Positions 13,019-59,103 are shown, numbered from the stretch's first letter. The stretch: DNA of 59,103 bases from an uncultured Gammaproteobacteria bacterium (GCA_964415615.1 CAYQAW010000007.1:1-59103); one strand, 5' to 3'. The notes: generated from the letters alone by a model not told the origin. Numbers and translations are program-made.

Positions 13019-13273
13019 ATGTATACACTATACGTTCTTAAAAGCCTCAAGGATGGAAGGACGTATGTTGGTTGTACTAAAGATTTTGAAAATAGGCTTA
13101 GGGAACACAATGCTGGTGAAGTGAAATCTACAAAAAGTAGGATTCCATTTGTGCTTTGGTACAAAGAAGGATATCAGGATAAATATGAAGCTTTTAAACG
13201 CGAACAACATTTTAAAACTTCCTGGGGGCGTAGACAGTTAAGGAAAATTCTTGATAACTTGCCAGAAGCGTAA
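13019..13273 (+). CDS. Small GIY-YIG nuclease (UPF0213-like)
   Basis: 'MYTLYVLKS...TYVG.T...RLREHNAG...REQHFK'; ATG at 13019 preferred over the track start 12902. Confidence 0.88.
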   Translation: MYTLYVLKSLKDGRTYVGCTKDFENRLREHNAGEVKSTKSRIPFVLWYKEGYQDKYEAFKREQHFKTSWGRRQLRKILDNLPEA

Positions 13274-13295
13274 CTATCTAGTAAACTCTTAATAT

Positions 13296-14000
13296 ATGGG
13301 AAACGATACAAACAATGATGAACTAAATAAGACATCACCGTTATCTTCAAAATCATCAAAAACAAATTATGTCGTACTTGTATTAACAGTTTTAGTTTGT
13401 TCTCTCGTTTTTGGTGCGGGAGGTTATTACTTAGGAACAAAATCATCAGTTAATAAGCAGGTTACCACCAAAATACCTTCACCTCAAAATATCGTAAAAG
13501 AGGAAGTAAAAAAGTCAAATTTGCCATTTCCAATAGTACGAGTTAAAAAACAGGTAAGTTACAGTGACTGGACTCGGTACAAATATAAGTCAGGTTATAG
13601 TTTTTATTACCCAAATGATTGGTTTATTAGTGAAGAAGGGCTGCAAGTTCAAAATTGGGATCCTAAAAGCCCTAATCTTAGACCAAGGCCCCTTTCGGGA
13701 GAAGAGACTAAATGGGATTTAAGTTTTAATGAACAACCCCTCTCTTCTTTCGAGGGGGTGATGACCCAAGCTGATACAAGTGTAAGCAACTGGGATTCAA
13801 TAGAAGTTTCATCAACTTTAAAAGGTTGGCCTGTTTATTTTGCTTATAAAGAAAAAACTGAGCCAATGGGAAATCCTTATTTGGTTGCCGTTGTTGTCAC
13901 CCCTGAAAACAAAATATTATCATGGCATGGCTTTTCAGGTGACGCTAAAAGTGTGAATATAGAAAAATTAAAACAAATTGTAGAAAGCCTACAAAAATAA
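13296..14000 (+). CDS. Membrane-anchored exported protein (PsbP-like fold possible)
   Basis: N-terminal TM helix, 'YSFYYPNDW' motif. Confidence 0.6.
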   Translation: MGNDTNNDELNKTSPLSSKSSKTNYVVLVLTVLVCSLVFGAGGYYLGTKSSVNKQVTTKIPSPQNIVKEEVKKSNLPFPIVRVKKQVSYSDWTRYKYKSGYSFYYPNDWFISEEGLQVQNWDPKSPNLRPRPLSGEETKWDLSFNEQPLSSFEGVMTQADTSVSNWDSIEVSSTLKGWPVYFAYKEKTEPMGNPYLVAVVVTPENKILSWHGFSGDAKSVNIEKLKQIVESLQK

Positions 14001-14161
14001 AGCAGTCCGTCTTGGCAGCAAGGATCGATTTTCTAATATGCATACTTATACATTTTTTAGTCCTAAAGTATAGACTAAATCAGGTAAAAGGCCGTCAGAT
14101 AGGAATAATTTGAAGAATTCTGGCAGTCTGGCTAAGACCTCGTCAGGAGCTCCCAGTCCAG

Positions 14162-14196
14162 ATTCTCCACACAGACAGAAAATCTGTATGGAGAAT
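14162..14196. terminator. Hairpin between convergent genes
   Basis: ATTCTCCA-cACAGA...TCTGTa-TGGAGAAT. Confidence 0.5.
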
Positions 14197-14226
14197 TTAA
14201 GATAATCCTTAATAGATCCTCTGCTC

Positions 14227-14454
14227 TTACATTGTTTGATAAGGCTGATCCATTTCTTTCTTACCCCAACCTAATACCTTCATCACATCATCAGCAGAGG
14301 TATAAACCTTATCTGCAAGATGCTCTTCAAACCATTTTTTATCTTCCTTGGAAAAATCAGAAAGGTTTTCACACTCTTTAACCAAATCCTCTTTGCTGGC
14401 TGGATAACTCTGATGGTTTTTCAGATGATCCATGGCTCCTGACATATTTTGCAT
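14227..14454 (-). CDS. DUF2795-like small protein
   Basis: 'YPASKEDLV...YTSADDV' pattern. Confidence 0.55.
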   Translation of the reverse strand: MQNMSGAMDHLKNHQSYPASKEDLVKECENLSDFSKEDKKWFEEHLADKVYTSADDVMKVLGWGKKEMDQPYQTM

Positions 14455-14560
14455 TTATTCTCACCCCCTTCCAGTACCTGCAAGTATCTAATATTCTTTT
14501 AAGATTTACAGAATTTTTCAGTAAGAAATAGGTGATAAATTATGATATAATCCATTGATT

Positions 14561-14728
14561 ATGGCAAAAAAAGGCAACAGGCAGTTATTTAGCTTTCAGT
14601 GTTCAACTTGTAAAAGTAAGAACTATACTGCTACAAAAAACACAGTAAATATTAAAGAAAAGCTTGCTTTGAGTAAATTTTGTAAACACTGCAGAAAATC
14701 CACAGAACACAAAGAAGTAAAACTCTAA
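14561..14728 (+). CDS. rpmG: 50S ribosomal protein L33 (Zn-ribbon C+ form); not in the ORF track
   Basis: Hand translation MAKKGNRQLFSFQCSTCKSKNYTATKNTVNIKEKLALSKFCKHCRKSTEHKEVKL. Confidence 0.95.
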   Translation: MAKKGNRQLFSFQCSTCKSKNYTATKNTVNIKEKLALSKFCKHCRKSTEHKEVKL

Positions 14729-14782
14729 AATCCAGGTTACAGTTTACAGTTAACAGTTAACAGGTTACAATTAACCCAGCTT

Positions 14783-14853
14783 AGGGATGTGATGAAATGG
14801 TATCATAGAGGTCTCCAAAACCTTTTTTTCAGGTCCGAATCCTGACATCCCTG
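14783..14853 (+). tRNA. tRNA-Trp(CCA)
   Basis: AGGGATG/CATCCCT acceptor, anticodon loop CT-CCA-AA, T arm TCAGG-TCCGAAT-CCTGA; usual position after rpmG. Confidence 0.9.
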
Positions 14854-14858
14854 CCCAT

Positions 14859-15566
14859 TTAGAAATTTACCTTAATTCTGGCAGATTGGACAAATAAAGT
14901 TTTGCCTTGAGTGCTTTTTATTTGGATCGAATAAGTCTTCTGCCCGCTGGGCAACTTGAATGTTGCCGAAGTCTGACTACCAAAACTAGTTGAAGTTGTG
15001 CTCAACTCCGAAGAAATAGCACTATTGTCTGTTATATTATATAACCTGACAGATCCTATACCTGCTGCTTCTGTTAACCTGAAATTTGCCTCAAGTTGCA
15101 TACTGGAATAACCTGAATAATTATCCGTATTAATTGAGATCTGATATTCAGCCAAGCTTTCCCAATTCTGATTATCCCAAGGCCCTCCACCAGAACCTAA
15201 AGGAATATATAAAGGATATTTGGCACTGCTCACTGCTGGAGCAGGAGTGGCTTTTTCCAAAACTGCAATACGGGTTTTTAAATCAATAATTGTTGATTCT
15301 AAATCCTTAATTTTTGAATCAGCAGAACTGGAAATATTAACTTGTGGACTTGGGGATTTCAGATTATTAACCTGGGGCACAGGTTCTGCTGTGCTGACTG
15401 CAGGCAAAGTTTTAGGTACTTCTACAGGAGCTTGAACTTGTTGATCAACTTGAGAATTTATCTTTTGTGGTGTTTGCAAGCCCTGTTTGCCTGCCAGATA
15501 TCTCCAATAACCCAGCCCAGAAACTATAATCACAGGTATTAAAATAAAAGGCAGCAGTCTAATCAT
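14859..15566 (-). CDS. Membrane-anchored hypothetical protein
   Basis: N-terminal TM, Pro-rich linker, short coiled coil, beta-rich C-terminal domain. Confidence 0.65.
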   Translation of the reverse strand: MIRLLPFILIPVIIVSGLGYWRYLAGKQGLQTPQKINSQVDQQVQAPVEVPKTLPAVSTAEPVPQVNNLKSPSPQVNISSSADSKIKDLESTIIDLKTRIAVLEKATPAPAVSSAKYPLYIPLGSGGGPWDNQNWESLAEYQISINTDNYSGYSSMQLEANFRLTEAAGIGSVRLYNITDNSAISSELSTTSTSFGSQTSATFKLPSGQKTYSIQIKSTQGKTLFVQSARIKVNF

Positions 15567-15633
15567 AAATTAATAATACCACAACCTGTCCTAGTTTGAT
15601 TTTAAACTTATAGTCTGGTAAAATACTCAACTT

Positions 15634-16266
15634 ATGTTCAAAAAGTCTCTTTTGACCTTGGCCATCATCCCTTATTTAGTTAACCCTTTCCCTGACAACT
15701 ATCTGCTTGCCCGAAAAGAGATGTCTTTAGACAATCGTTACAGTAATCAATTTGTAAATAATGTTTTCAAAGATAATATCTTACTAAACCTGGCCTACAT
15801 GACAGGCAGGGTGACAAAAGCCTCAGACATTAAATGGGATGAAATAGTCAAACCCTTTCAGTATGAATTTAAACTGGATCCCAATAAAACTTTTGCTTTT
15901 CATGAGGATGTAAAAGATAAGTATAAAGCAAGCTTAGTAAAAACCACCAATGCCCATTTTAACTCTGCTGAAGGCTTTAAAACTGATGGATATTTGTTTG
16001 GAGATGGAATCTGTCATCTTGCTTCTTTGATAAATTGGGCAGCAAAAGAAGCAGGTTTGGAAGTTGAAGCACCAACCAATCATGACTTTGCTATCATCCC
16101 TGATATTTCCAAAGAGTATGGAGTATCTATTTATTCTTCACCATTCTCTAAAGGCTCAAATGCCCTGCAAAATTTATATATAACTAACAATAAAGGCAAA
16201 CCAATTACTTTCAAGTTTGAGTATTATAATAACAATCTAAAAGTATCTATTGTTGAGCTAAATTAA
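15634..16266 (+). CDS. VanW-like domain protein
   Basis: 'GDGICHLAS', 'PTNHDF', 'LYITNNKGKPI'. Confidence 0.75.
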   Translation: MFKKSLLTLAIIPYLVNPFPDNYLLARKEMSLDNRYSNQFVNNVFKDNILLNLAYMTGRVTKASDIKWDEIVKPFQYEFKLDPNKTFAFHEDVKDKYKASLVKTTNAHFNSAEGFKTDGYLFGDGICHLASLINWAAKEAGLEVEAPTNHDFAIIPDISKEYGVSIYSSPFSKGSNALQNLYITNNKGKPITFKFEYYNNNLKVSIVELN

Positions 16267-47369: not shown

Positions 47370-48338
<969 letters not shown>

Positions 48339-48339
48339 C

Positions 48340-48410
48340 GAGAGACTAGTCGCTAGAGTCTAGTAGCTAGTATAGTATCTTGACTCTTGACTCTAGACTC
48401 TTGTCACTTT
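48340..48410. repeat. Heptamer-arm hairpin of the TAGAGTC/GACTCTA family (related arm at 47281-47312)
   Basis: GAGACTAG..TAGAGTCTAG arm versus (CTTGACT/CTAGACT)n arm. Confidence 0.7.
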
Positions 48411-48428
48411 CTGTCGTATCATCTACTT

Positions 48429-49115
48429 ATGCCCACTCTGCCCTTGGATTTAACCACCCTACTGTTAATTTTTACCATCGTTTTAATCACAATTCTCTAT
48501 CTTCGTGAATATAACCAGAGAAAAAAACTTGAATCTTCTGAAGAGAGGTTCTTAGAACAATTCAAGGAGAAAGGCTGGAATACTTTACATAAATCCATCC
48601 AAAAATCTCAGGATTTACTGGGACAGGCAGAACTGGAAGGCATAAAAGTAGTAGCTGGCAGCAAAATTGAAACCTCCAAAATGGAGCAGGATTTTTCAAA
48701 AGAAATCTCTCAGTCTCTACTTGCATCTAAGCAAACTATAGCTTCTGCCCAAAATCAGCTTTTACAATTTATGACAGACTTACAAAAAAGAAGCGCTGAA
48801 TTTGAGGAAGCTAGCAAAAAAACAGGAGAACAAAGAATCAACCAGCTATTTGGCAGAATTGAAGAAAGACTAGCTGATCTGCTGGTACAGACAGAGCAAA
48901 GAACCACCTCTTCCATTGAACTGGAGTTAAAAAGCACCAGACAACTAATTGAAACTTATAAAAACGAGCAGCTTAAACTGATTGATGAAAATATTGTGGC
49001 CATGATGGAACAAACTTTAGGTATAGTCTTAAGCAAAAAACTGTCTTTAAAAGACCAACTGGATATTATTTATGAAGCACTTGAGAAAGCTAAGGTGGAG
49101 AAATTCATTGTATAA
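48429..49115 (+). CDS. Single-TM coiled-coil protein, F0 subunit b-like
   Basis: N-terminal TM, long charged helix, position in the atp operon. Confidence 0.55.
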   Translation: MPTLPLDLTTLLLIFTIVLITILYLREYNQRKKLESSEERFLEQFKEKGWNTLHKSIQKSQDLLGQAELEGIKVVAGSKIETSKMEQDFSKEISQSLLASKQTIASAQNQLLQFMTDLQKRSAEFEEASKKTGEQRINQLFGRIEERLADLLVQTEQRTTSSIELELKSTRQLIETYKNEQLKLIDENIVAMMEQTLGIVLSKKLSLKDQLDIIYEALEKAKVEKFIV

Positions 49116-49208
49116 ATAGCTATCAGCTATCAGTCTTCAGTCATCAGACAAGAAAAGTCTGACAGCTGACAGCTGACAGCTGACAGCGAAGCGATACTGA
49201 AGACTATT
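49116..49208 (+). repeat. Empty heptamer-arm hairpin filling the stop-to-start gap
   Basis: TAA|ATAGCTATCAG...GAC-aagaaaa-GTCTGACAG...GAAGACTATT|ATG. Confidence 0.92.
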
Positions 49209-49682
49209 ATGGATGACACGCTGGCCGTTATTTTAAAAGACACCTATTCCTTATCCCAACTCAAACATAGACTGAGGATCTTAAAATCCTCTCTTTTGAG
49301 AGCATTTTTTGGAGGAGAAAACCTCTCTTTTACTCCTGAACAACTAAGCTGGCTCAAATCCCTGCCCACTGAGTTTTATCAAAAATTTAACAAAGATAAT
49401 GTTTACCAAATCTTTACTGAAATTGACAAGGAGATGGGCAAACTTAAAACCTTAACTATGTATTTAACTTTTGAACCAGATGAGATGACTTTAGCCCAAC
49501 TAGGCACCTATATCAGAACCAATTTTGGTCCAAATTTCCTTTTGGATATTAAATTGAAACCAGACCTTATTGCTGGGCCTGCTTTAGTATGGAAAGGAAT
49601 TTATAAAGATTATTCTCTGAAAGCTAAACTGGAAAGTAAAAATACAGAAATTTTGCAGGAATTTAAGAAGTTCTTAAGGTAG
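49209..49682 (+). CDS. atpH: ATP synthase delta/OSCP-like subunit (divergent)
   Basis: C-terminal 'LDIKLKPDLIAG...KDYSLKAKL' resembles the delta C-domain; directly upstream of atpA. Confidence 0.6.
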   Translation: MDDTLAVILKDTYSLSQLKHRLRILKSSLLRAFFGGENLSFTPEQLSWLKSLPTEFYQKFNKDNVYQIFTEIDKEMGKLKTLTMYLTFEPDEMTLAQLGTYIRTNFGPNFLLDIKLKPDLIAGPALVWKGIYKDYSLKAKLESKNTEILQEFKKFLR

Positions 49683-49770
49683 TCGTCAGCCATCAGTTTT
49701 CAGCTATCAGACTAAAAAATTAAAAATCTGAAAGCTGACAGCTGAGAGCGAAGCGATACTGAAGACTATT
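49680..49770 (+). repeat. Empty heptamer-arm hairpin, atpH-atpA
   Basis: Arm begins with the TAG stop and ends GAAGACTATT 3 nt before ATG. Confidence 0.92.
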
Positions 49771-49773
49771 ATT

Positions 49774-51222
49774 ATGAATCAAAACGAAGTAGGTTATGTT
49801 GTATCAAGCAGGGATTTTCTAGTTTACCTAAATGGCTTCCCCACCATCAGAGTTAATGACATGGTGGAATCTGATAATAATCTCCGTGGCTGGGTTAATT
49901 CTACCCTAGAAGATAAAATTGAAGTTCTGATGTTAGATGAAGGAGAAATCAAACCAAAGCAACAATTTAAAAAACTACCTAACCGTTTAGGAATTGCTGT
50001 AGGAAATTCATTGCTAGGGCGGGCAGTCAACCCTTTAGGAATACCTATTGATGGTAAGGGCCTACTTTCCCATACTAAATCTACTGATATCTCAGAACTG
50101 GACAAAGAGGCCCCTGGAATAGAATCCAGAGAATTTATTACCACCCAATTTTTAACAGGAATAACTTTAATTGATACTTTGATTCCTCTGGGACAAGGCC
50201 AAAGAGAACTGGTTTTGGGAGATGCCCATTCTGGTAAAACAGGCTTCTTGATTGATACAGTTATAAATCAAAAAAACACTGGTGTAATTTGTGTGATAGC
50301 CTCAATTGGCAAACCTGCTGTGACAGTCAGGAATTTGATTGATACCCTAAAAAACAATGGTGCTTTGGATTATACAATTGTGGTTGCCACATCTTCTTCT
50401 GAACCAGCGCCTCTAATTTTTTTAACTCCTAAAACTGCCATGACTATTGCTGAATATTTCCAAAAACAGGGCAAAGATGTGCTGTTGATATTAGATGATT
50501 TAGGCTCGCATGCCAAAATCTACCGGGAAATTTCCCTGCTCGGCAACAAAGCCCCAGGCAGAGAATCTTATCCTGGAGATATTTTTTACCAGCATGCTCA
50601 TTTACTGGAAAGGGCTGGGAATTTTTTGCCACAATTTGGCGGAGGTTCTATCACAGCTCTACCTGTAATCGAGCTTAATTTAAATGATTTTACTACTCTT
50701 ATCCCTACAAATGTGATGTCCATGACTGATGGACATTTAATGTTTAAAGCTTCTATGCGTTCCCAGGGACAAATACCAGCCATAGATATTTCTTTATCAG
50801 TATCCAGAGTAGGCAGGCAAACTCAAAACCATTTAACTAATTTACTTTCTACTAAAATCAGGCAAGTTCTATCTGAAGCAGCAGATTTGGAAACAGTTTC
50901 CAGATTTTCTTCAGAACTACCAGCAGAAACTCAGCTGATATTAAAAAGAAGAGATTTAATCATGGAAATTTTAAAACAAGAATCTTTAACTGCTGTAGTC
51001 AAACAAATTCAAGTTATACTTCTGGCACTCCCCTTTACCAAATTCTTGCAGGATAAAAACAAAGCTTTTGTTGAAAAATATAAACCAATAATTATTGAAA
51101 ACTTTCTAAAAAATCCTGGACTTGTACCAATTACCAAATCCATCAACCAGTTAAAAAGTGACGAGGAATTAATAAAAATGCTGGAGGGAGCAGGACCAGT
51201 ACTGACAAAAATCTGCCAATAG
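49774..51222 (+). CDS. atpA: F1 ATPase alpha subunit (divergent)
   Basis: 'GQGQRELVLGD..SGKT', 'PGRESYPGDIFY', 'SMTDG', 'SVSRVG'. Confidence 0.93.
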   Translation: MNQNEVGYVVSSRDFLVYLNGFPTIRVNDMVESDNNLRGWVNSTLEDKIEVLMLDEGEIKPKQQFKKLPNRLGIAVGNSLLGRAVNPLGIPIDGKGLLSHTKSTDISELDKEAPGIESREFITTQFLTGITLIDTLIPLGQGQRELVLGDAHSGKTGFLIDTVINQKNTGVICVIASIGKPAVTVRNLIDTLKNNGALDYTIVVATSSSEPAPLIFLTPKTAMTIAEYFQKQGKDVLLILDDLGSHAKIYREISLLGNKAPGRESYPGDIFYQHAHLLERAGNFLPQFGGGSITALPVIELNLNDFTTLIPTNVMSMTDGHLMFKASMRSQGQIPAIDISLSVSRVGRQTQNHLTNLLSTKIRQVLSEAADLETVSRFSSELPAETQLILKRRDLIMEILKQESLTAVVKQIQVILLALPFTKFLQDKNKAFVEKYKPIIIENFLKNPGLVPITKSINQLKSDEELIKMLEGAGPVLTKICQ

Positions 51223-51310
51223 CTATCAGCTATCAGTCTTCAGCCATCAGACTAAAAATTTCAGAGTCTGAAAGCTGAAAGCTGAGAGCGAAGCGATACT
51301 GAAGACTATT
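51220..51310 (+). repeat. Empty heptamer-arm hairpin, atpA-atpG
   Basis: TAG stop inside the arm; GAAGACTATT directly before ATG. Confidence 0.92.
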
Positions 51311-52159
51311 ATGACTATAAAACAAATTGATGCAGCGCTGGAAGAAGGACAATCTTTAAAACAGATTGCTCAAGCTTATTCTGAAATTGCCAATCTGAAA
51401 ATTAAAAGAATCAGAACAGAGGTGGAAAGAAACAGGGTCTTTTTTAAAGAGATTGAAGGAGTTTATGCTTTGATTAAAAATCTGGCTGTCAGGAGAAAAA
51501 CAAATATTACCAAACCTAAAAAGACAATCAGCATAGTTTTAACTTCAAATCACAGGTTTTATGGCAACATTAACTCTGATCTATTAAAGTTTTTTGTAAG
51601 TTCTACTCAAAACTTAGATACAGATAGAATCATGCTGGGCAAGGCTGCAATAGATTATTTCAGGGCTGATCCCATATTTAAAGATTACCAGGAAATAACA
51701 TTAAAAGAGGACCAGCCAGATAGTGTTGAGCTGTTGGCTTTAACAAATATGGTCAAGGATTATAACCAAGTACTGGTTTTTTATTCCAGTATGAAAAGTT
51801 TACTAGTCCAGCAACCTGTGGTAACAGATATCACAGCCTCAAGTACACTCGTAGCAAGCGATCCCAATCTCCATCCTCAAAACAAAGAAGGATTTAAATT
51901 TATCTTTGAGCCGGATTTAGGTAAAATATTGCATTTTTTTGACAGTCAAATCATCACTCTACTAATTGAGGGGACATTTTTAGAATCTGAACTCTCCAGA
52001 ACAGCTTCCCGTTTTGTTTCCATGGATGGTGCAGAAACGCAGGCAAATAAATTTCTTAAAGATTATCAATTGATTAAAGCATATGCTAAAAGAAACATGG
52101 ACAACAATACAATTTTAGAAAATTTTGCTACTATGATAGCTGTAAGAAAGGAGCATTAG
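51311..52159 (+). CDS. atpG: F1 ATPase gamma subunit (divergent)
   Basis: 'IVLTSNHRFYGNIN', 'SELSRTASRFVSMDGA'. Confidence 0.88.
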   Translation: MTIKQIDAALEEGQSLKQIAQAYSEIANLKIKRIRTEVERNRVFFKEIEGVYALIKNLAVRRKTNITKPKKTISIVLTSNHRFYGNINSDLLKFFVSSTQNLDTDRIMLGKAAIDYFRADPIFKDYQEITLKEDQPDSVELLALTNMVKDYNQVLVFYSSMKSLLVQQPVVTDITASSTLVASDPNLHPQNKEGFKFIFEPDLGKILHFFDSQIITLLIEGTFLESELSRTASRFVSMDGAETQANKFLKDYQLIKAYAKRNMDNNTILENFATMIAVRKEH

Positions 52160-52279
52160 ACAATAGAAGGTAGAAGATAGTATTTTGATAATAGAAGTTA
52201 GATAGTAGATAATTCCATCTTCTATCTTCTATATTCAAAGATCCATTTTCTATTTTCCATCATCTATCGTCAGAACATT
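52160..52279 (+). repeat. Heptamer-arm hairpin of a different family (TAGAAGA/TCTTCTA), atpG-atpD
   Basis: Purine-rich 7-mer arm followed by a complementary pyrimidine-rich arm. Confidence 0.8.
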
Positions 52280-53779
52280 ATGTCAAATCCAACTGTTCAA
52301 AATAGTCCAAATATCGCCTCCACACCTTCCCTAAACCATCAAAATCGGGCCCGCGGAACCATCACCTCCGTCAATGGCCAAATTGCTACTGTTGAGATTG
52401 ACGGCGATATTTTTCCTGAACTTTTTGAGATACTGGCTGCACCCTCTGACCCCTCAGTAATTTTGGAAGTTTTTTCCCAGTCTGAACTTTCAATTTTTGT
52501 CCAGATTTTAAGTAATCCGGATAAACTATTCAGGGGCATGCAAGTTGTAGGCACTGGATCTGATTTAAAAGTCCCTGTGGGGTCTCCTGTTTTAGGACGG
52601 GTTATAGATTTATTTGGAATTCCCAAAGATAATGGCAAGGCAATAACTACAGATAAAAAAAGCTCTATTTATTCCAAAGCGCCATCTTTAAATATCGTTA
52701 AATCAACCTATCAGGTTTTAGAAACAGGCATCAAGGCTATAGATTTCCTGACCCCCATACAAAAAGGTGGAAAAGTGGGCTTTATAGGAGGAGCAGGTGT
52801 AGGAAAAACTATTTTACTTACAGAACTCATGCACAACATTACCTTAAGACCAGCCAGTTCACACCTCCCAGGTGAGCATAAGCTGCAGACTGAATCACAC
52901 CTGGGAGGTGAAAGTAAACCAGTCTATTCTGTATTTGCAGGTGTAGGAGAAAGAATTAGAGAAGGACAAGAGTTGGTTCAACGTTTACAAGAATCAGGAG
53001 TTTTACCTAAAACAATCCTGGTGCTGGGACAAATGAATGAAAATGCAGCTATCCGTTTCAGGATAGCTTTAGCAGCAGCAGCCCAGGCAGAATATTTTAG
53101 GGATGAAATAAAATCAGATGTGCTATTTTTTATTGATAATATGTTCAGGTATGTTCAGGCAGGAGCTGAGGTAGCAACGCTTCTGGGTACTATCCCCTCT
53201 GAACAAGCCTATCAGGCTACTCTTCAAACAGAGGTAGCAACCCTAGAAGACAGACTAATCCCTACAGGAAATGGGGCGATTACTTCTTTCCAGAATGTGT
53301 ACGTGCCAGCAGATGAAATTTCCGATGCTGGAGTAGTAGCTGTTATGTCGCTTCTGGATAATGCCATAGTACTATCACGTTCTGTTGCCCAAAAAGGTAT
53401 TTACCCTCCTATAGACTTATTCCAGTCCTCTTCTTCTACTGCTTCCAGGTCTTTCTTAGGTGAAGTGCATTTTAAAGCTTTAACAGAGTTTCAAAAGATT
53501 CTGGAAAACTATAACAAACTATCACACATTGTAGCAATTGTCGGAGAAGAAGAATTATCCCCGGAAAACAGGATACTTTATAACAGGACCAAAAAAATAA
53601 TAAATTATCTAACCCAGCCTTTTTTTATGACCGAAAAACAAACTGGCAAAAAAGGAGTTTATGTTTCCAGAGAGACTAGTGTAAAAGATATCGCAATAAT
53701 ACTTTCTGGCTCATTAGATAACACCCCAGCAGAAAAATTTATGTACATTGGATCTCTGGCTGACGCCAAGATAATATAG
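52280..53779 (+). CDS. atpD: F1 ATPase beta subunit
   Basis: 'GGAGVGKT', 'GVGERIREG', 'GQMNE', 'IDNMFRY', 'YVPADE'. Confidence 0.96.
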   Translation: MSNPTVQNSPNIASTPSLNHQNRARGTITSVNGQIATVEIDGDIFPELFEILAAPSDPSVILEVFSQSELSIFVQILSNPDKLFRGMQVVGTGSDLKVPVGSPVLGRVIDLFGIPKDNGKAITTDKKSSIYSKAPSLNIVKSTYQVLETGIKAIDFLTPIQKGGKVGFIGGAGVGKTILLTELMHNITLRPASSHLPGEHKLQTESHLGGESKPVYSVFAGVGERIREGQELVQRLQESGVLPKTILVLGQMNENAAIRFRIALAAAAQAEYFRDEIKSDVLFFIDNMFRYVQAGAEVATLLGTIPSEQAYQATLQTEVATLEDRLIPTGNGAITSFQNVYVPADEISDAGVVAVMSLLDNAIVLSRSVAQKGIYPPIDLFQSSSSTASRSFLGEVHFKALTEFQKILENYNKLSHIVAIVGEEELSPENRILYNRTKKIINYLTQPFFMTEKQTGKKGVYVSRETSVKDIAIILSGSLDNTPAEKFMYIGSLADAKII

Positions 53780-53855
53780 CTTTCAGTCATCAGTCTTCAG
53801 CTTTCAGACTTTTCTGATTTGTCTGATGACTGACAGCTGATAGCTGACGACTATT
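53777..53855 (+). repeat. Empty heptamer-arm hairpin, atpD-atpC
   Basis: TAG...GACGACTATT|ATG. Confidence 0.92.
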
Positions 53856-54122
53856 ATGCAAACCTTACATGTCAGAATCATCTCCCCTCAACAACTAATC
53901 TTAGATACTACTGCTTCCTCAGTCAGCTCCAAAAACCCCCAGGGGAATTTTGATATCTTACCCCAACATGCTAATTTTATAACCATTGTAGAAAATGAAC
54001 CTATTGTGGTAAGAACGCTGGACCAAAAATCTGTAACTTTTAAATTTCCTCTAGCTATAATTTTAACAAGAGAAAATAAGGTGAGTATTTATACATATAT
54101 CCAGCCTCAATTAGATAAGTAG
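53856..54122 (+). CDS. atpC: F1 epsilon subunit, N-terminal beta domain only
   Basis: 'LHVRIISP', 'GNFDILPQHANFIT'; 88 aa, no C-terminal helices. Confidence 0.85.
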   Translation: MQTLHVRIISPQQLILDTTASSVSSKNPQGNFDILPQHANFITIVENEPIVVRTLDQKSVTFKFPLAIILTRENKVSIYTYIQPQLDK

Positions 54123-54241
54123 TAATTTTCAAGTACCAATTATCAATTTACAATGAATTTTCAATGATTCAATTACCAATGTTTGAAAATTATTCCATTG
54201 ATCATTGATTGAAAATTGCAAAATTGAAAATTGTAAATTAA
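54120..54241. repeat. Heptamer-arm hairpin (AATTTTC/GAAAATT family) after atpC
   Basis: (CAATTNN)n arm versus (AAAATTG)n arm. Confidence 0.75.
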
Positions 54242-54344
54242 TTCTGATCCTTTTTGATTACCCCCTTTTTTCTTCTTAGTAATGAATTTTAATTACTAAG
54301 TATTAGTATTAACCATTATATATATTAATCATTAATAATAAGTC

Positions 54345-54414
54345 TTGACAAATGCGTCAAAATCTATGCATACTGGATATAGGATCTATGCATGATAAAA
54401 AAAGATGCATAGAT
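54345..54414 (+). promoter_or_regulatory. Promoter (TTGACA at 54345) with three ATCTATGCAT operator-like boxes
   Basis: Direct copies at 54362-54371 and 54384-54393, inverted copy at 54405-54414. Confidence 0.65.
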
Positions 54415-54482
54415 TTAGGGCAGAGCAGCCTAGATTTTTGCAGACGGAAGCCTGAATCCCTCTTTTTTTTACTTTTGTTTTT

Positions 54483-57400
54483 ATGGAAAAACCGTCTGCG
54501 AAAAAAGTTAATAGTTCAGAGTTAATAGTTAATAGTGAAAAAACTACAAACTACAAACTACAAACTAATAACTTCGTTAAGATTGGCCAAGCTTCTGAAA
54601 TCCTCGGAGTTTCTATTGACACCTTAAGAAGATGGGAGAGGCTTGGAAAAATCACAGTTCAAAGAACCCCCGGCGGAACAAGACTTTACCCTCTGTCTGT
54701 AAAAATTGGTGATGCCTCTAAAATTTTAGGAGTTTCTATTGACACCTTAAGAAGATGGGAAGCAGCTGGCAAAATAGCAACCATCAGAACCTCTGGCGGA
54801 ACAAGACTTTATTCCTTAGTATCCTTAAGCAGAAAAAATAAAGCTGAGCCTAAAAACACCAATAGCACAGAAGAATTACTCAAAAAAACTAACTCCGATT
54901 CAAAAAATATATCACCTAGCTCTTATATTATTCCTACATCTACTCCTATCACTCTGGAGAAAACAAAGGATATAAACAAATTCTTAATTGGAGCTGGATT
55001 TACTTTGGTAGTAATTTTAATAATTTCTGGCTTCATGGTTGCTTCTTTCCAAAAGAAAAATGGGCTATCTACCAACTACCAACCCCGATTCAATCGGGGC
55101 CAACTACCAACTACCAACTCTAATGTCCTGGCTGTAACAACTGTTTCTAAATATCTAGAAATAAACAGCGATACTCAAATCAATGGGTCTTTATCTGTGC
55201 GTGATGGCATCAATGGTTTAACCTTGGAAGCTACTCCTTCAACAAATAGCATTGCTTTAACATCAGGAGATACTACTTTGACTGTAACAAAGACTGCCAA
55301 ACTAGATCAAGATGTATCAACTACCTCTACTCCTACCTTTGCCAGTCTTAATTTATCCTCTACTAAAAATCAACTAGTTTTCCAAAGTGGTGGACCCACA
55401 GGCACTTTAACCTGGACTCCAACTGGTGCAAGAATTGTAACCTTACCTGATGCCACCACAACCTTAGTTGGTAAAGATACTACTGATACTTTAACCAACA
55501 AATCCATTTCTGGTTCTACCAATACTTTAACTAATATCCCCAATTCTGCTTTAACCAATCCATCTGTTACTGTAACTGCTGGGACCAACTTAACTGGTGG
55601 AGGAACTGTTGCACTAGGCGGTTCAGTTACCCTTGCTCTAAAAGACTCGCCTGCTTTTACTGGTCAGGTTCTGCTAACTGATGGAACAGCTGCTGCCCCA
55701 GCTTTAGCCTTCAGCAGTGATATTGATTCAGGTCTATATCTAATTGGTACAAACAAGATCGCTCTGATCACAGGAGGCACAGCTACCTCAGGTATTACTA
55801 TTGATGCATCTGGTAATTTAGGAGTAGCTAATAATGCTCCAGCATATAAATTAGACGTGACAGGCACAGCCAATATTACTTCCAATACTACTATTGGTGG
55901 AACTTTGGGAGTAACGGGCGCCTCGACTCTCTCTTCGACCCTAGGGGTATCTTCAGGATTATCTGTTGGTTCTGCTTACTACTCGCTTTCGCCACCACCA
56001 AATGGTGCCATTATAGAAGGTAATGTCGGAATCGGAACCAGCGCGCCTGGTTCTTTTGCGTTAAATGTAAACGGTGATGCTAATATCACCGGGAGCCTGA
56101 TAACCAGTCAATCTTTAACATTTTCCTCTCTTTCTCAAGGATCAGTTGTCTTTGCAGGCTCATCAGGAACTCTGTCTCAAAACAACCCAAACTTCTACTG
56201 GGATGATACCAATACCAGGCTGGGAATAGGCACCTCTGCTCCTTCTGATACCCTCACTGTCAGTGGTACTAGTTCTTTTGCTTCTACCTTAACTGCTTCC
56301 AATGGTTTAACTCTAACCACAGGAGCTTTAAATTTAACCTCTACCTCAGGAGCTGTTAACTTAGGGTTAACCTCCTCTACTCAAGCATTTAGATTAGGAG
56401 CTGGATTTAACTTTGATTCTACTAACTCCAGAGTTGGTATAGGTTCTACTGCTGCTCCAACTTCTGCTTTAACAGTAATTGGTAATATTGGTATTGGTAC
56501 CTCTGCTGCAGGAGCAGCCTTACAGGTAAATGGCGGAGGACTATTTGGCTGGGGGACAGCTTCTTCTTCCCTCTCTTCTGGAGCTATTTTAGGAGTTAAT
56601 GGAAATGTGGGAGTAGGAACTACTACACCTTTGGCTAACCTGCATGTAGTAGGACAGTGTGTGACTGGAGATACCAGGCTGAGGAGAAGGAAGAAAAAGA
56701 AGAATGGTGAGTGGTCTGATGAATATGAAGATATAGAGATTAAAGATATCCAAACAGGAGACCAAATCCTGTCCTTAAATGAGAGTACTGGTGAATTTGA
56801 ACCTCATACTGTCAAAGCCCTCAAAAATATGGGTAAACAGGGAGTATTCATGTTAGTTACCCAGTCAGGAAAAAGAATTGAAACTACAAATGAACACCCA
56901 TATCTGACTATTACACACCTGGAAGGAGTCAAGGCCCACCTTCCAGGTGCTAATCAACAAAAATCCTCTGTCTTTGAAGTTGATCAATCACCTAAGGTGG
57001 AAATCTTAACCCAAAAATCTGTGGTAGCAATAGCCCAAAAAAATCAAGCATTCACTTTAACAATCTCCAAAGAACTTAAAAGGAAATTGTTTGATAACTA
57101 CTATCAGGACAGACCTAAATTATTTGGACCGGAGATTTTTGCATTCTCCATCATAGATCTTTTACAAAAATCAAACACTTCTATCACCAGATTGGAAATT
57201 GATACTGATTACACAGGATATGGGATAAAGATTACGGCATTAATAAAAAGATTCTATCCGGAAATTGATGTCCGCTTTAAAGAAGTTGGTAAACACTCAC
57301 CTGCTCACTTGGCAGCATACCTTACCCAGACAGGAAGAAAAGTTCAGAAAACCAATAAAAAAGAGACCCTGGCCAATTTGAAACTCAAAGGCTTCTTGGC

Positions 57401-59103
57401 TTCAGAACTGTTGCGCCAGGCGTTTACAAGGGTTCGCAGTCCACATGGTCTCTTAAACATTTCCAAGTATACCACTAAATGGGAAAAAATCAAGTATCTA
57501 AAACCTGGAATGATTATAGCTACAGCTGATGGATGGGAGAAAATACAAACTAAATACTCTACTGGTAAAAAACAAACCTTTGATATAGAAGTTAGTGAAA
57601 CTCATAACTTTGTAGGGAATAATATAGTTGCCCATAATACTTTTATCACTGGTAATGTTGGGATAGCTAACTCTGCTCCATCTTTTACTCTGGATGTAGT
57701 AGGTACTGGTAGATTTTCTTCTGCTTTAACGGCCTCAAATAGTTTAACTCTATCAACTGGAGCTCTAAATTTAACTTCTACCTCAGGCCAAGCTAACTTA
57801 GCTTTAAGCAGTAACACCAATGCCTTTACCGTTAATGGATTGTTTGGGATTGATACACAAAATAATAGAGTCGGCATTGGGACAACTGCTCCAGTTCAAA
57901 CTTTCCAGGTAAATTCAGGCACTTCTTCTATGGTGGTTACTTCAGGAGGAAATGTTGGAATAGGATTTACTTCTCCAACAGCTAACTTACATGTTGTTGG
58001 AACCACCAGATTTGATGGCACCACCACCTCTTATGGCAATATCCTGCCTGGCAATGATGTTACTTATGATCTTGGCTCTTCTGCTGTCAGATGGAATAAT
58101 TTATATGCCTACAACATCACTGCCACCAATATAGCAGGTGTGATTACTGGAGGTTCTACTTCTTCTTCTGATTGGTTAATCAACTCCACCAATACCTCAG
58201 ACAGCGCTAATTCATCTTTAAGCTTTAAAAGAGGCTCTGCTACTAATGCTGTACTGCAGTGGTATGGAGACAATAATACTTTTGATTTTAACTCAGGTAT
58301 AAGAATTGGGGTAAACGGTGGTGCTGCTTCTACCATTGAAAATACTACTGGCTTAGTATTATCTGGTTTTGGAAATGATATCACCACAGGCACTAATGAA
58401 AACTTATCCTTAATTCCCAATGGTACAGGCAATGTTGGAATTGGAACATCCAATCCAACCCAATTCTTCCAAATTAACTCCAATGGTTCCTCAGCTTTTG
58501 TTGTAACCTCCTCTGGAAATGTTGGAATAGGAACAACCACTGCTGATTACAACTTATCTGTTGTTGGTACAGCTAACTTTACAGGCAATGTAGGAATTGG
58601 AGGCACAGCTACTATCAGTTCCCTACTACAGGCAAATGGTGGTTTAACTGTGACTGGATCTTCCATACTTCAAGCTCTGTCTGCTACAGATATATCCTCA
58701 TCTACATTAACCACTACTGGAAATGTGGGAGTAGGAGGATCTTTAACTGTTACAGGTACTTCTACCTTCACAGGACTTTCTACTTTCAATGGTGGAGCTA
58801 CTATTGCCTCAGGACAAAACCTAACATTATCTGGATTTACTTCTGGAGCAGGACTGTTTGCTGGAACATCAGGAGTAGTATCTCAAAACCCATCAAACTA
58901 TTACTGGGATAATACTAACAACAGATTAGGAATAGGTACTTCTGCCCCATCTGCTGCTTTCCAGGTTAATACTAATACCTCAAACCCAGTAGTAATTACC
59001 TCTACTGGTAATGTTGGTATTGGAACCACCTCCCCAGCCATGCTTTTGCAAGTCATGGGTAATGCTGGTTTTGGAGATTCAGTTACAGCTGCCAGGGCTA
59101 GCA
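54483..59103 (+). CDS. Giant surface/fibre-like protein (3'-truncated by the window edge): 2x MerR-type HTH, TM, Thr/Ser/Gly-rich 'GNVGIGT..P' repeats, internal intein
   Basis: Most of the frame hand-translated from ATG 54483 without meeting a stop; its absence from the stop-delimited ORF track fits an ORF running off the window; >1540 codons. Confidence 0.9.
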   Translation, partial: MEKPSAKKVNSSELIVNSEKTTNYKLQTNNFVKIGQASEILGVSIDTLRRWERLGKITVQRTPGGTRLYPLSVKIGDASKILGVSIDTLRRWEAAGKIATIRTSGGTRLYSLVSLSRKNKAEPKNTNSTEELLKKTNSDSKNISPSSYIIPTSTPITLEKTKDINKFLIGAGFTLVVILIISGFMVASFQKKNGLSTNYQPRFNRGQLPTTNSNVLAVTTVSKYLEINSDTQINGSLSVRDGINGLTLEATPSTNSIALTSGDTTLTVTKTAKLDQDVSTTSTPTFASLNLSSTKNQLVFQSGGPTGTLTWTPTGARIVTLPDATTTLVGKDTTDTLTNKSISGSTNTLTNIPNSALTNPSVTVTAGTNLTGGGTVALGGSVTLALKDSPAFTGQVLLTDGTAAAPALAFSSDIDSGLYLIGTNKIALITGGTATSGITIDASGNLGVANNAPAYKLDVTGTANITSNTTIGGTLGVTGASTLSSTLGVSSGLSVGSAYYSLSPPPNGAIIEGNVGIGTSAPGSFALNVNGDANITGSLITSQSLTFSSLSQGSVVFAGSSGTLSQNNPNFYWDDTNTRLGIGTSAPSDTLTVSGTSSFASTLTASNGLTLTTGALNLTSTSGAVNLGLTSSTQAFRLGAGFNFDSTNSRVGIGSTAAPTSALTVIGNIGIGTSAAGAALQVNGGGLFGWGTASSSLSSGAILGVNGNVGVGTTTPLANLHVVGQCVTGDTRLRRRKKKKNGEWSDEYEDIEIKDIQTGDQILSLNESTGEFEPHTVKALKNMGKQGVFMLVTQSGKRIETTNEHPYLTITHLEGVKAHLPGANQQKSSVFEVDQSPKVEILTQKSVVAIAQKNQAFTLTISKELKRKLFDNYYQDRPKLFGPEIFAFSIIDLLQKSNTSITRLEIDTDYTGYGIKITALIKRFYPEIDVRFKEVGKHSPAHLAAYLTQTGRKVQKTNKKETLANLKLKGFLASELLRQAFTRVRSPHGLLNISKYTTKWEKIKYLKPGMIIATADGWEKIQTKYSTGKKQTFDIEVSETHNFVGNNIVAHNTFITGNVGIANSAPSFTLDVVGTGRFSSALTASNSLTLSTGALNLTSTSGQANLALSSNTNAFTVNGLFGIDTQNNRVGIGTTAPVQTFQVNSGTSSMVVTSGGNVGIGFTSPTANLHVVGTTRFDGTTTSYGNILPGNDVTYDLGSSAVRWNNLYAYNITATNIAGVITGGSTSSSDWLINSTNTSDSANSSLSFKRGSATNAVLQWYGDNNTFDFNSGIRIGVNGGAASTIENTTGLVLSGFGNDITTGTNENLSLIPNGTGNVGIGTSNPTQFFQINSNGSSAFVVTSSGNVGIGTTTADYNLSVVGTANFTGNVGIGGTATISSLLQANGGLTVTGSSILQALSATDISSSTLTTTGNVGVGGSLTVTGTSTFTGLSTFNGGATIASGQNLTLSGFTSGAGLFAGTSGVVSQNPSNYYWDNTNNRLGIGTSAPSAAFQVNTNTSNPVVITSTGNVGIGTTSPAMLLQVMGNAGFGDSVTAARAS
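56658..57638 (+). mobile_element. Intein (Hint), 327 aa, with a non-LAGLIDADG insert
   Basis: Block A 'CVTGDT', block B 'TTNEHPY', blocks F/G 'TFDIEVSETHNFVGNNIVAHN', +1 residue Thr. Confidence 0.92.

Follow-up and report, generated by a model that had tools for sequence, protein, structure and literature searches.

Giant genes joining BldC-related winged helices to a predicted phage-tail-fibre-like surface protein in Candidatus Daviesbacteria

What might a single protein do that begins with DNA-binding-type domains, crosses a membrane once and continues as a fibre resembling those of phage tails? The question is raised by a giant gene at the end of contig CAYQAW010000007.1 (C7) of assembly GCA_964415615.1. 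This contig of 59,103 nucleotides is the whole stretch of DNA that was analysed (the window) and one of the 40 contigs of the 1.2-Mb genome, with 36% G+C, of an ultra-small groundwater bacterium, which by sequence comparison its relatives place in Candidatus Daviesbacteria, within the candidate phyla radiation (CPR)/Microgenomates. The 5' part of the gene (54483..59102, plus strand, like all stranded features of the window given below) is a single frame of 1540 codons, still open where the contig ends. Its product starts with two MerR/BldC-type helix-turn-helix (HTH) units, followed by a linker, one transmembrane (TM) helix and a long fibre. We describe this domain order and its conservation, a cluster of boxes in the gene's own promoter that is conserved and unique in the genome, the kinship of the head with BldC, and the linkage of the gene to an F1-like ATPase operon. 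We consider it an even call that the protein is an N-in/C-out, probably trimeric fibre whose head autoregulates its own promoter, with an RNA stem gating translation and an intein splicing out of the fibre.

An earlier note on this DNA had read the frame as one polypeptide running from HTH through TM to fibre, and had warned of a stop or frameshift between the HTH and fibre parts. The unitigs of four groundwater runs (four samples, two studies) contain neither. Independent Logan contigs tile the region 54300-59078 and bridge all junctions with no indel and two single-nucleotide polymorphisms (SNPs), so the continuity of HTH and fibre stands, and contig depths agree with two HTH copies. We nevertheless considered that the fusion could be an artefact of assembly or gene calling that joined a small regulator gene to a fibre gene, since the contig ends inside repeats and short-read graphs branch at a 32-mer common to the two HTH copies. 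This explanation is hardly credible and was rejected: the unitigs bridge every junction at matching depth, and the parts follow one another in this order in 22 full-length, independently assembled homologues as well as in 64 of 96 genomes. The same note had called the gene unannotated, which was only partly right. Public collections hold a 1555-residue protein starting at TTG 54438, and relatives are named by NCBI, several of them as 'MerR family DNA-binding transcriptional regulator', a misleading name for surface proteins of 4,000 residues. The public TTG falls within a conserved leader stem (described below), and conservation of the sequence M-x-x-P-S in orthologues points to the ATG at 54483 as the real start.

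The head of the protein is its best-conserved N-terminal part (58-73% identity in the family comparison), while the linker between HTH and TM is not alignable. The MerR profile PF00376 matched the giant protein with an E-value of 5.2e-27 and 93.8 bits (cut-off 28.2) in two stretches, residues 33-69 and 75-115, giving two winged helices of the MerR/BldC type, HTH 1 (54579..54689, E 7.6e-15) and HTH 2 (54702..54812, E 3.5e-14). At the DNA level these are a tandem duplication (54576-54688 and 54699-54811, 76% identity) with the 123-bp period reported earlier, and the 32 identical nucleotides at 54606/54729 could be read directly. Because single-HTH orthologues align from residue ~72, i.e. to HTH 2, this unit is orthologous to the relatives' single HTH and HTH 1 is the extra copy. 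The profile MerR_1 was matched over positions 2-38 of 69 only, and neither a coiled-coil dimerisation helix nor an effector domain follows the wing: HTH 1 is followed by 4 residues, HTH 2, a low-complexity linker and the TM. The best solved relatives of HTH 2 are the BldC structures 6amk and 6ama, ahead of CarH and classical MerR proteins. The NCBIfam model HTH_BldC matched the head with E 6.9e-10, as did models for HspR, IS607 transposase and excisionase, all below their whole-protein cut-offs. By these profile comparisons the head is a relative of BldC, not a BldC member as the NCBIfam model defines it.

BldC of Streptomyces lacks the MerR coiled coil and assembles head-to-tail into multimers on 9-bp direct repeats, AATTxxxx(C), contacting DNA through Arg30 and Lys26 of the recognition helix and His46 of the wing (6AMA/6AMK, PMC5859096). 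Like BldC and the winged HTHs of excisionases and IS607, each unit of the head is a winged helix of ~40-45 residues without coiled coil or effector domain. The recognition helix S(I/V)DTLRRWE, with its arginine (..TLRRW..), and the wing motif G-G-x-R-x-Y are conserved as in DNA-binding relatives, and tandem or array heads mimic the head-to-tail multimers of BldC. Most family members have one HTH copy; two are found here and in P0012, P0080, P0087, P0112 and L020, and the units precede the TM in every member that carries them. The most extreme tandem head was seen in P0059, a 623-residue protein of the representative library with about nine MerR/BldC-type units followed by one TM. The variable number of units (1, 2, ~9) fits a unit acting as a multimer on repeats, and we infer from sequence that the head binds DNA. 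There are also clear differences, as BldC is a free cytoplasmic protein of 68 residues with a regulon, whereas the head is the N-terminus of a membrane protein of at least 1540 residues (truncated by the contig) with a single cluster of candidate sites, at its own gene.

The segment FLIGAGFTLVVILIISGFMVA (residues 167-187, 54981..55043) is the sole strongly hydrophobic segment of the protein (Kyte-Doolittle [KD] value of 2.53 over 21 residues) and would be a single TM helix of the signal-anchor type, in line with the one TM of the earlier note. Exactly one TM segment, at residues 100-190, was present in 22 of the 26 proteins screened (KD threshold of 1.9); two of the remaining four lie just under the threshold, and two have no TM in their first 320 residues. 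In the screened members the TM begins 60-140 residues past the HTH. Summed over 24 proteins, 69 lysines and arginines lie within 15 residues of the TM on its N side vs 44 on its C side. N-in/C-out (type II) is the likeliest orientation because the N-terminal part of 166 residues has folded HTH domains and no signal peptide, the TM is single, and the charge sums, the exported-type composition of the outer part and the phage-fibre domains agree with it. The chain thus has the order of the ToxR/CadC class, a cytoplasmic-type DNA-binding domain, a single TM and an outer part, in what is predicted to be the same orientation.

Beyond the TM, more than 1300 residues of repeats had been noted. The chain indeed continues for 1344 residues, but these comprise 1017 residues of fibre and a 327-residue intein. 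The fibre is rich in T (16%), G (14%), S (13%) and N (9%), contains no Cys and has 11 GNVGIG-type motifs. Its N-extein part (55071..56657) consists of a conserved base module (NVLAVT..YLEINSDTQING.., 50-75% identity to orthologues) followed by GNVGIG repeats, with weak PHROG matches; the C-extein part (57639..59102), with GNVGIG repeats up to the contig edge, matched the PHROG tail fiber families phrog_18345 (2.5e-6) and phrog_9942 (3.8e-6), both weakly. The C-terminal ends of relatives carry phage-type domains. Of 22 relatives, 6 have S74 (PF13884; for example with 55.6 bits in P0006 and 33.4 bits in P0016), and 12 have another C-terminal module with a GRVPVKV motif (..AExY..GD(L/I)V..G(I/V)(V/I)S..ALAGRVPVKVSTENGPIEIGDYLTSSSTPGVAMKA..). 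A model of this module, of moderate confidence (predicted local distance difference test [pLDDT] score 63, core 80-90), best matched the C-terminal auto-chaperone fragment of phi29 gp12 (3gqh, E 3.3e-4), followed by 3suc and then by trimeric phage decoration proteins. The complete orthologue P0002 (L001; 3440 residues with one HTH, one TM, the fibre and no intein) ends in a K1-lyase_C tail-spike domain (31.4 bits, above cut-off). Since S74, the gp12-like module and K1-lyase_C occur in relatives and the fibre has PHROG matches of its own (~3e-6), the resemblance to phage tail fibres pointed out earlier is real, though distant. The fibre is probably trimeric. The family shares with phage fibres and spikes (S74; phi29 gp12, 3GQH/3SUC) the GNVGIG-type repeats, the PHROG similarity and the end domains of relatives, but the giant protein is chromosomal and cellular, with an N-terminal TM instead of a virion-attachment domain. 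It is ten-fold longer than most fibres, and its C-terminus lies outside the assembly.

Upstream of the gene is a sigma-70-type promoter (54345..54374: TTGACA at 54345, an 18-nt spacer and CATACT), the best match within 54050-54600 with 10/12 positions; TTGACA and the 18-nt spacing are invariant across 7 aligned orthologous regions. Operator-like boxes (54361..54415) overlie it, with AATCTATGCA at 54361-54370 in the spacer, GATCTATGCA at 54383-54392 (one mismatch) and an inverted AATCTATGCA at 54406-54415. This cluster is unique in the 1.2-Mb genome, being the sole case of at least three box-like sites within 80 bp; a genome-wide count gives no overall enrichment of the motif, which outside the cluster occurs at chance level. 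The layout, in which TTGACA is followed by two copies of AATCTATG(C/T)A and then by further direct or inverted copies, recurs at L001, L002, L003, L009/L012, L011, L015, L020 and L021, in orthologues down to 36-38% identity. At nine or more loci the spacer of TTGACA-18-TAnnAT contains the 10-bp direct repeats AATCTATG(C/T)A, and more divergent members keep the TATGCA core as palindromes, e.g. TGCATATATGCA, present twice in L023. The smaller HTH-less fibre gene on contig C18 has no AATCTATGCA box cluster. As in the sites of BldC, the candidate sites are phased direct repeats that start with AAT and have a C 8-9 bp on. Classical MerR proteins form homodimers through a long antiparallel coiled coil and bind a palindromic operator in a 19-20-bp spacer. 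We rejected this mechanism for the head, which has no coiled coil, a spacer of 18 bp and, in orthologues, direct spacer boxes. The conserved, genome-unique cluster in the gene's own promoter and the kinship with BldC lend real support to the autoregulation that the earlier note had suggested.

Between the promoter and the frame, a 13-bp RNA stem formed by UUUUUGCAGACGG and CCGUCUGCGAAAA (54435..54504; 54435-54447 paired with 54492-54504) encloses a U-rich leader and the ATG at 54483. Its fold energy is -19.5 kcal/mol (z -2.8), and CAGACGG ... ATG ... CCGTCTG is conserved in L001, L002, L003, L010 and L020. The 'PS' at residues 4-5 is conserved because its codons lie in the 3' arm of the stem. 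The orthologues contain no covariation in the stem; since the arms are invariant, the comparison shows conservation only.

Overall, we propose that the protein would insert as a type-II membrane-anchored, phage-tail-fibre-like surface fibre whose first ~125 residues, with two BldC-type winged helices, would stay in the cytoplasm. The heads would occupy the phased AATCTATGCA boxes over the -35/-10 spacer and the early transcribed region, and the membrane-bound protein would thereby influence the transcription of the gene that encodes it, a very costly one, the sign of this feedback being presumed. The giant fibre would then be the 'sensor' domain of a transmembrane transcription regulator. The stem in the messenger RNA may sequester the start codon and add a second, translational layer of control, and the intein would splice out of the fibre to give a continuous repeat. 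There is precedent for such an arrangement, as membrane-bound one-component regulators are widespread and transmembrane transcription regulators are thought to act on promoters while bound to the membrane (PMC10269533); the text of this census names neither MerR-type nor Patescibacteria examples. In ToxR, TcpP and CadC, too, a cytoplasmic DNA-binding domain at the N-terminus is joined by one TM to a C-terminal part outside the cytoplasm, but their HTHs are of the OmpR/PhoB type or others and their periplasmic sensors are small, in contrast to the MerR/BldC-type head and the tail-fibre-like outer part of 2,000-6,000 residues. Should the head control its own promoter while in the membrane, no larger or simpler 'surface-to-gene' device would be known, and the BldC-type fold would have been put to a new use. 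Tethering of DNA to the appendage and sensing of host contact are speculation.

Several points weigh against this proposal. The head scores 38.6 bits with HTH_BldC vs a cut-off of 77, which places it outside that subfamily, and in the alignment only the equivalent of Arg30 is kept among the DNA contacts of BldC, while Lys26 is replaced by Asp and His46 by Thr. The first spacer box of the giant gene's promoter is degenerate (AATGCGTCAA). No covariation of recognition helix and box was found among the paralogues within the genomes G071 and G072; a similar box, with the TATGCA core, accompanies a divergent paralogue whose wing differs, which makes the test non-discriminating. Another factor might bind the boxes, or they might be a promoter element that goes with the giant-gene class; the three soluble MerR-type open reading frames (ORFs) of the genome are less likely binders, their recognition helices being different. 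The positive-inside signal of the giant protein's own TM is neutral, with 3 vs 3 lysines and arginines. A tblastn search with the C-terminal 590 residues of the orthologue P0002 did not find the 3' end of the giant gene on the other 39 contigs, matching only the first ORF of the atp operon, and none of these contigs overlaps the end of C7. Our search for expression data found the locus in no RNA run.

The earlier note placed the gene directly downstream of an F1-like operon, and this position proved to be conserved. Alpha, gamma, beta and epsilon genes precede it in our genome, as they do in L001-L003, L009 and L011; L010 is an exception. The F1-like operon of the window (47394-54122) is a second set, the canonical atp operon being on contig C2 (~89.9-93.7 kb), and the two sets are 41% (beta) and 35% (alpha) identical. 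A window-type beta (at least 52% identity) is present in 69 of 95 other genomes of the order, usually beside the canonical one (41-48%). The fibre and the window-type beta also co-occur: 57 genomes have both, 5 only the fibre, 12 only the ATPase and 19 neither (odds ratio 18, Fisher p 9e-8, uncorrected for phylogeny). By hand count, the fibre gene lies 0.4-2.2 kb downstream of the window-type beta on the same strand in ~46 genomes; across the 96 genomes of the order this beta is usually the nearest neighbour upstream of the HTH-fibre gene. We also observed that the first ORF of the F1-like operon (47394..48338) encodes a leader/TM, an exported gp12-like module and a c-subunit-like hairpin. Its exported module is 29% identical to the C-terminal module of the fibres. 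What this conserved link to a second, divergent F1-like ATPase means is a further question for ordinary laboratory assays.

This linkage bears on a reading in which the HTH is a protein-protein module. The cytoplasmic HTH of RodZ binds MreB, and the head could similarly dock the inner end of the fibre to a cytoplasmic partner such as the F1-like ATPase, with the boxes belonging to another regulator. The spacing and strand of the two genes, their co-occurrence, the status of the F1 set as a second copy beside the canonical one, and the exported module that the c-subunit-like protein has in common with the fibres would all suit such docking. The head, however, keeps the recognition helix and wing of its DNA-binding relatives, P0012 has the HTH without a neighbouring ATPase, five genomes have the fibre but no such ATPase at all, and the co-occurrence counts are not corrected for phylogeny; we find docking unlikely. 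The head might instead bind DNA as an anchor and not as a regulator. RacA, which pins the Bacillus chromosome to the pole, has a MerR-like winged HTH that holds DNA at the envelope, and by analogy the head would tie the chromosome or its own locus to the envelope under the fibre. Anchoring might occur during coupled transcription, translation and insertion, any effects on expression being incidental. A DNA-binding-type head on a membrane protein also fits an anchor, and since translation of this gene of more than 4.6 kb starts with the head, the head could act in cis. In the BldC study (PMC5859096), RacA features as the other MerR-like protein that is atypical. Yet the box motif forms one cluster only, with chance-level occurrence elsewhere, and the cluster sits exactly on the -35/-10 spacer, where regulators act. 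RacA of Bacillus subtilis also differs in being a soluble coiled-coil dimer that has many GC-rich sites and is brought to the membrane by DivIVA, whereas the giant protein has one AT-rich cluster and a covalent TM anchor. We doubt that anchoring accounts for the head.

TcpP and related regulators are known to undergo regulated proteolysis. The fibre could accordingly be a contact or tension sensor whose engagement, loss or failed assembly leads to proteolysis near the TM and frees the HTH pair to regulate its own and possibly other promoters. The linker from HTH to TM, which is long, of low complexity and poorly conserved, might contain a cleavage site, but we found neither a site for a protease nor a gene for a partner protease nor a second target, the genome having a single box cluster, and we regard release of the head as decidedly improbable. 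It is also rather unlikely, in our view, that the fibre, the DNA-binding head and the linked F1-like ATPase form one envelope machine of Daviesbacteria-like episymbionts. In such a machine, the head, as the earliest product of a gene of at least 12 kb, would bind the operator of the gene copy under transcription and pin this copy to the membrane; whether the assembled fibre is attached, loaded or lost would determine the occupancy of the promoter by heads; and the dedicated F1-like motor, with a c-ring displaying the gp12-like module, would assemble, move or retract the fibre. If true, this would be a one-protein wire from host contact to chromosome, coupled to a repurposed rotary ATPase. Direct feedback of the membrane-bound head on its own promoter remains the reading that we prefer.

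We also asked how far this design extends beyond the window. A word-index search found 22 proteins of 2000-5325 residues, the HTH motif was present in 24 of the 26 proteins screened, and an exhaustive HMMER scan yielded 335 cluster representatives with E below 1e-10. Of the order's 96 species-level genomes (63 genera), 64 yielded a match with HTH, TM and fibre, with frames of up to 5984 residues, and some 1-Mb genomes of the order encode up to four paralogues. Judged by these matches, the HTH-TM-fibre design is conserved in dozens of genera. We found no description of this architecture in the literature, which given incomplete coverage is weak evidence, and the family is apparently widespread and undescribed. 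Each fibre gene takes up 1% or more of a 1-Mb genome, and two thirds of the genomes of the order have one. The ultra-small CPR/Patescibacteria are believed to spend their lives attached to other cells, although little is known of how they attach or sense attachment; in this family one chain would link the cell exterior to a DNA-binding domain.

The fibre is interrupted by a feature on which the earlier note was silent, a class-1 intein of 327 residues (residues 726-1052, 56658..57638) that follows ..GNVGVGTTTPLANLHVVGQ. It has Cys1, a TxxH block B, a C-terminal HN and Thr+1. All catalytic residues are present (C1, T77-N-E-H80, ..VAHN and T+1), TIGR01445 and TIGR01443 match, and PF14890 scores 52.7 bits. 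The intein is related to the NpuDnaB intein in sequence (E 4e-9) and in fold (Foldseek E 9.8e-6, TM-score 0.77 on the target), and PF14890 and Foldseek agree on a HINT fold. With its Cys1, TxxH, terminal His-Asn, Thr+1 and HINT fold it resembles DnaB-type mini-inteins rather than bacterial intein-like (BIL) domains. The two SNPs of the region both lie inside the intein: 56717 T>A, with A alone in three of the four runs, and 57392 C>T, with T as a mixed variant in two runs. We infer that the intein splices and restores the continuous repeat ..LHVVGQ-TFITGNVGI.. If the protein is N-in/C-out, the intein would be threaded out unfolded and have to splice outside the cell, which is unusual for inteins and needs no cofactor.

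The intein differs from canonical ones in its host, presumably an exported structural protein and not a nucleic-acid enzyme, in its site, which is the fibre's own repeat (..GNVGVGTT(S/T)PLANLHVVGQ, then C...HN, then T(F/Y)ITGNVGI..), and in its insert. Instead of a LAGLIDADG or HNH homing endonuclease, which we did not find in it, the intein contains a nested domain of ~125 residues (56964..57341) with a predicted RNase-H-like fold and no Pfam match. The model has the order b-b-b-a-a-b-a-b-a (pLDDT 76-89), and Foldseek matched it to RNase H2, the RNase H of reverse transcriptases and integrase cores (prob 0.97-0.99, E ~0.015); D109, Q110, S111, E115, D182 and H217 are invariant in 8 homologues. 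An orthologous fibre gene in Daviesbacteria RIFCSPHIGHO2_02_FULL_39_12 (L002, 9977-13297) is interrupted at the same site by an intein with an NYN (PIN-like) nuclease domain (PF01936, E 7.7e-24) nested in it. A second intein of our genome, of 366 residues, lies at the same repeat motif on contig C28 and has a DUF3800-like insert (E 0.007, below cut-off); C28 also carries an uninterrupted copy of the motif. Three sister inteins at the fibre motif thus carry three different nuclease-type inserts. We found no literature linking inteins with NYN or DUF3800, though with incomplete coverage this is weak evidence. How inteins home into the fibre's own repeat with such unusual nuclease-like inserts is another question for ordinary laboratory assays. 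Six intein ends of the type ..VAHN(T/S/C) were found in P0018.

Other contigs of the genome hold related sequences. The HTH-less fibre gene on C18 (~13134-15963, minus strand) has an N-terminal TM and GNVGIG repeats; it is broken by a scaffold gap of 100 N and shows an S74-like motif towards its end. C28 (6369 bp) is open from end to end on the minus strand, encoding 2122 residues of fibre repeats, and its end overlaps the start of C37 by 24 nt. C28 and C37 may belong to the giant gene or to the gapped fibre gene on C18, and we left them unjoined. The short contigs C34 and C36 have one ORF of ~355 residues each; by eye only, and unchecked, we take one to be like a reverse transcriptase of the group-II-intron type and the other like a transposase. 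The inteins in fibre DNA are two of the genome's three or four, and the third clear one lies on C16 (9210-10208, minus strand) inside a frame of 1013 residues.

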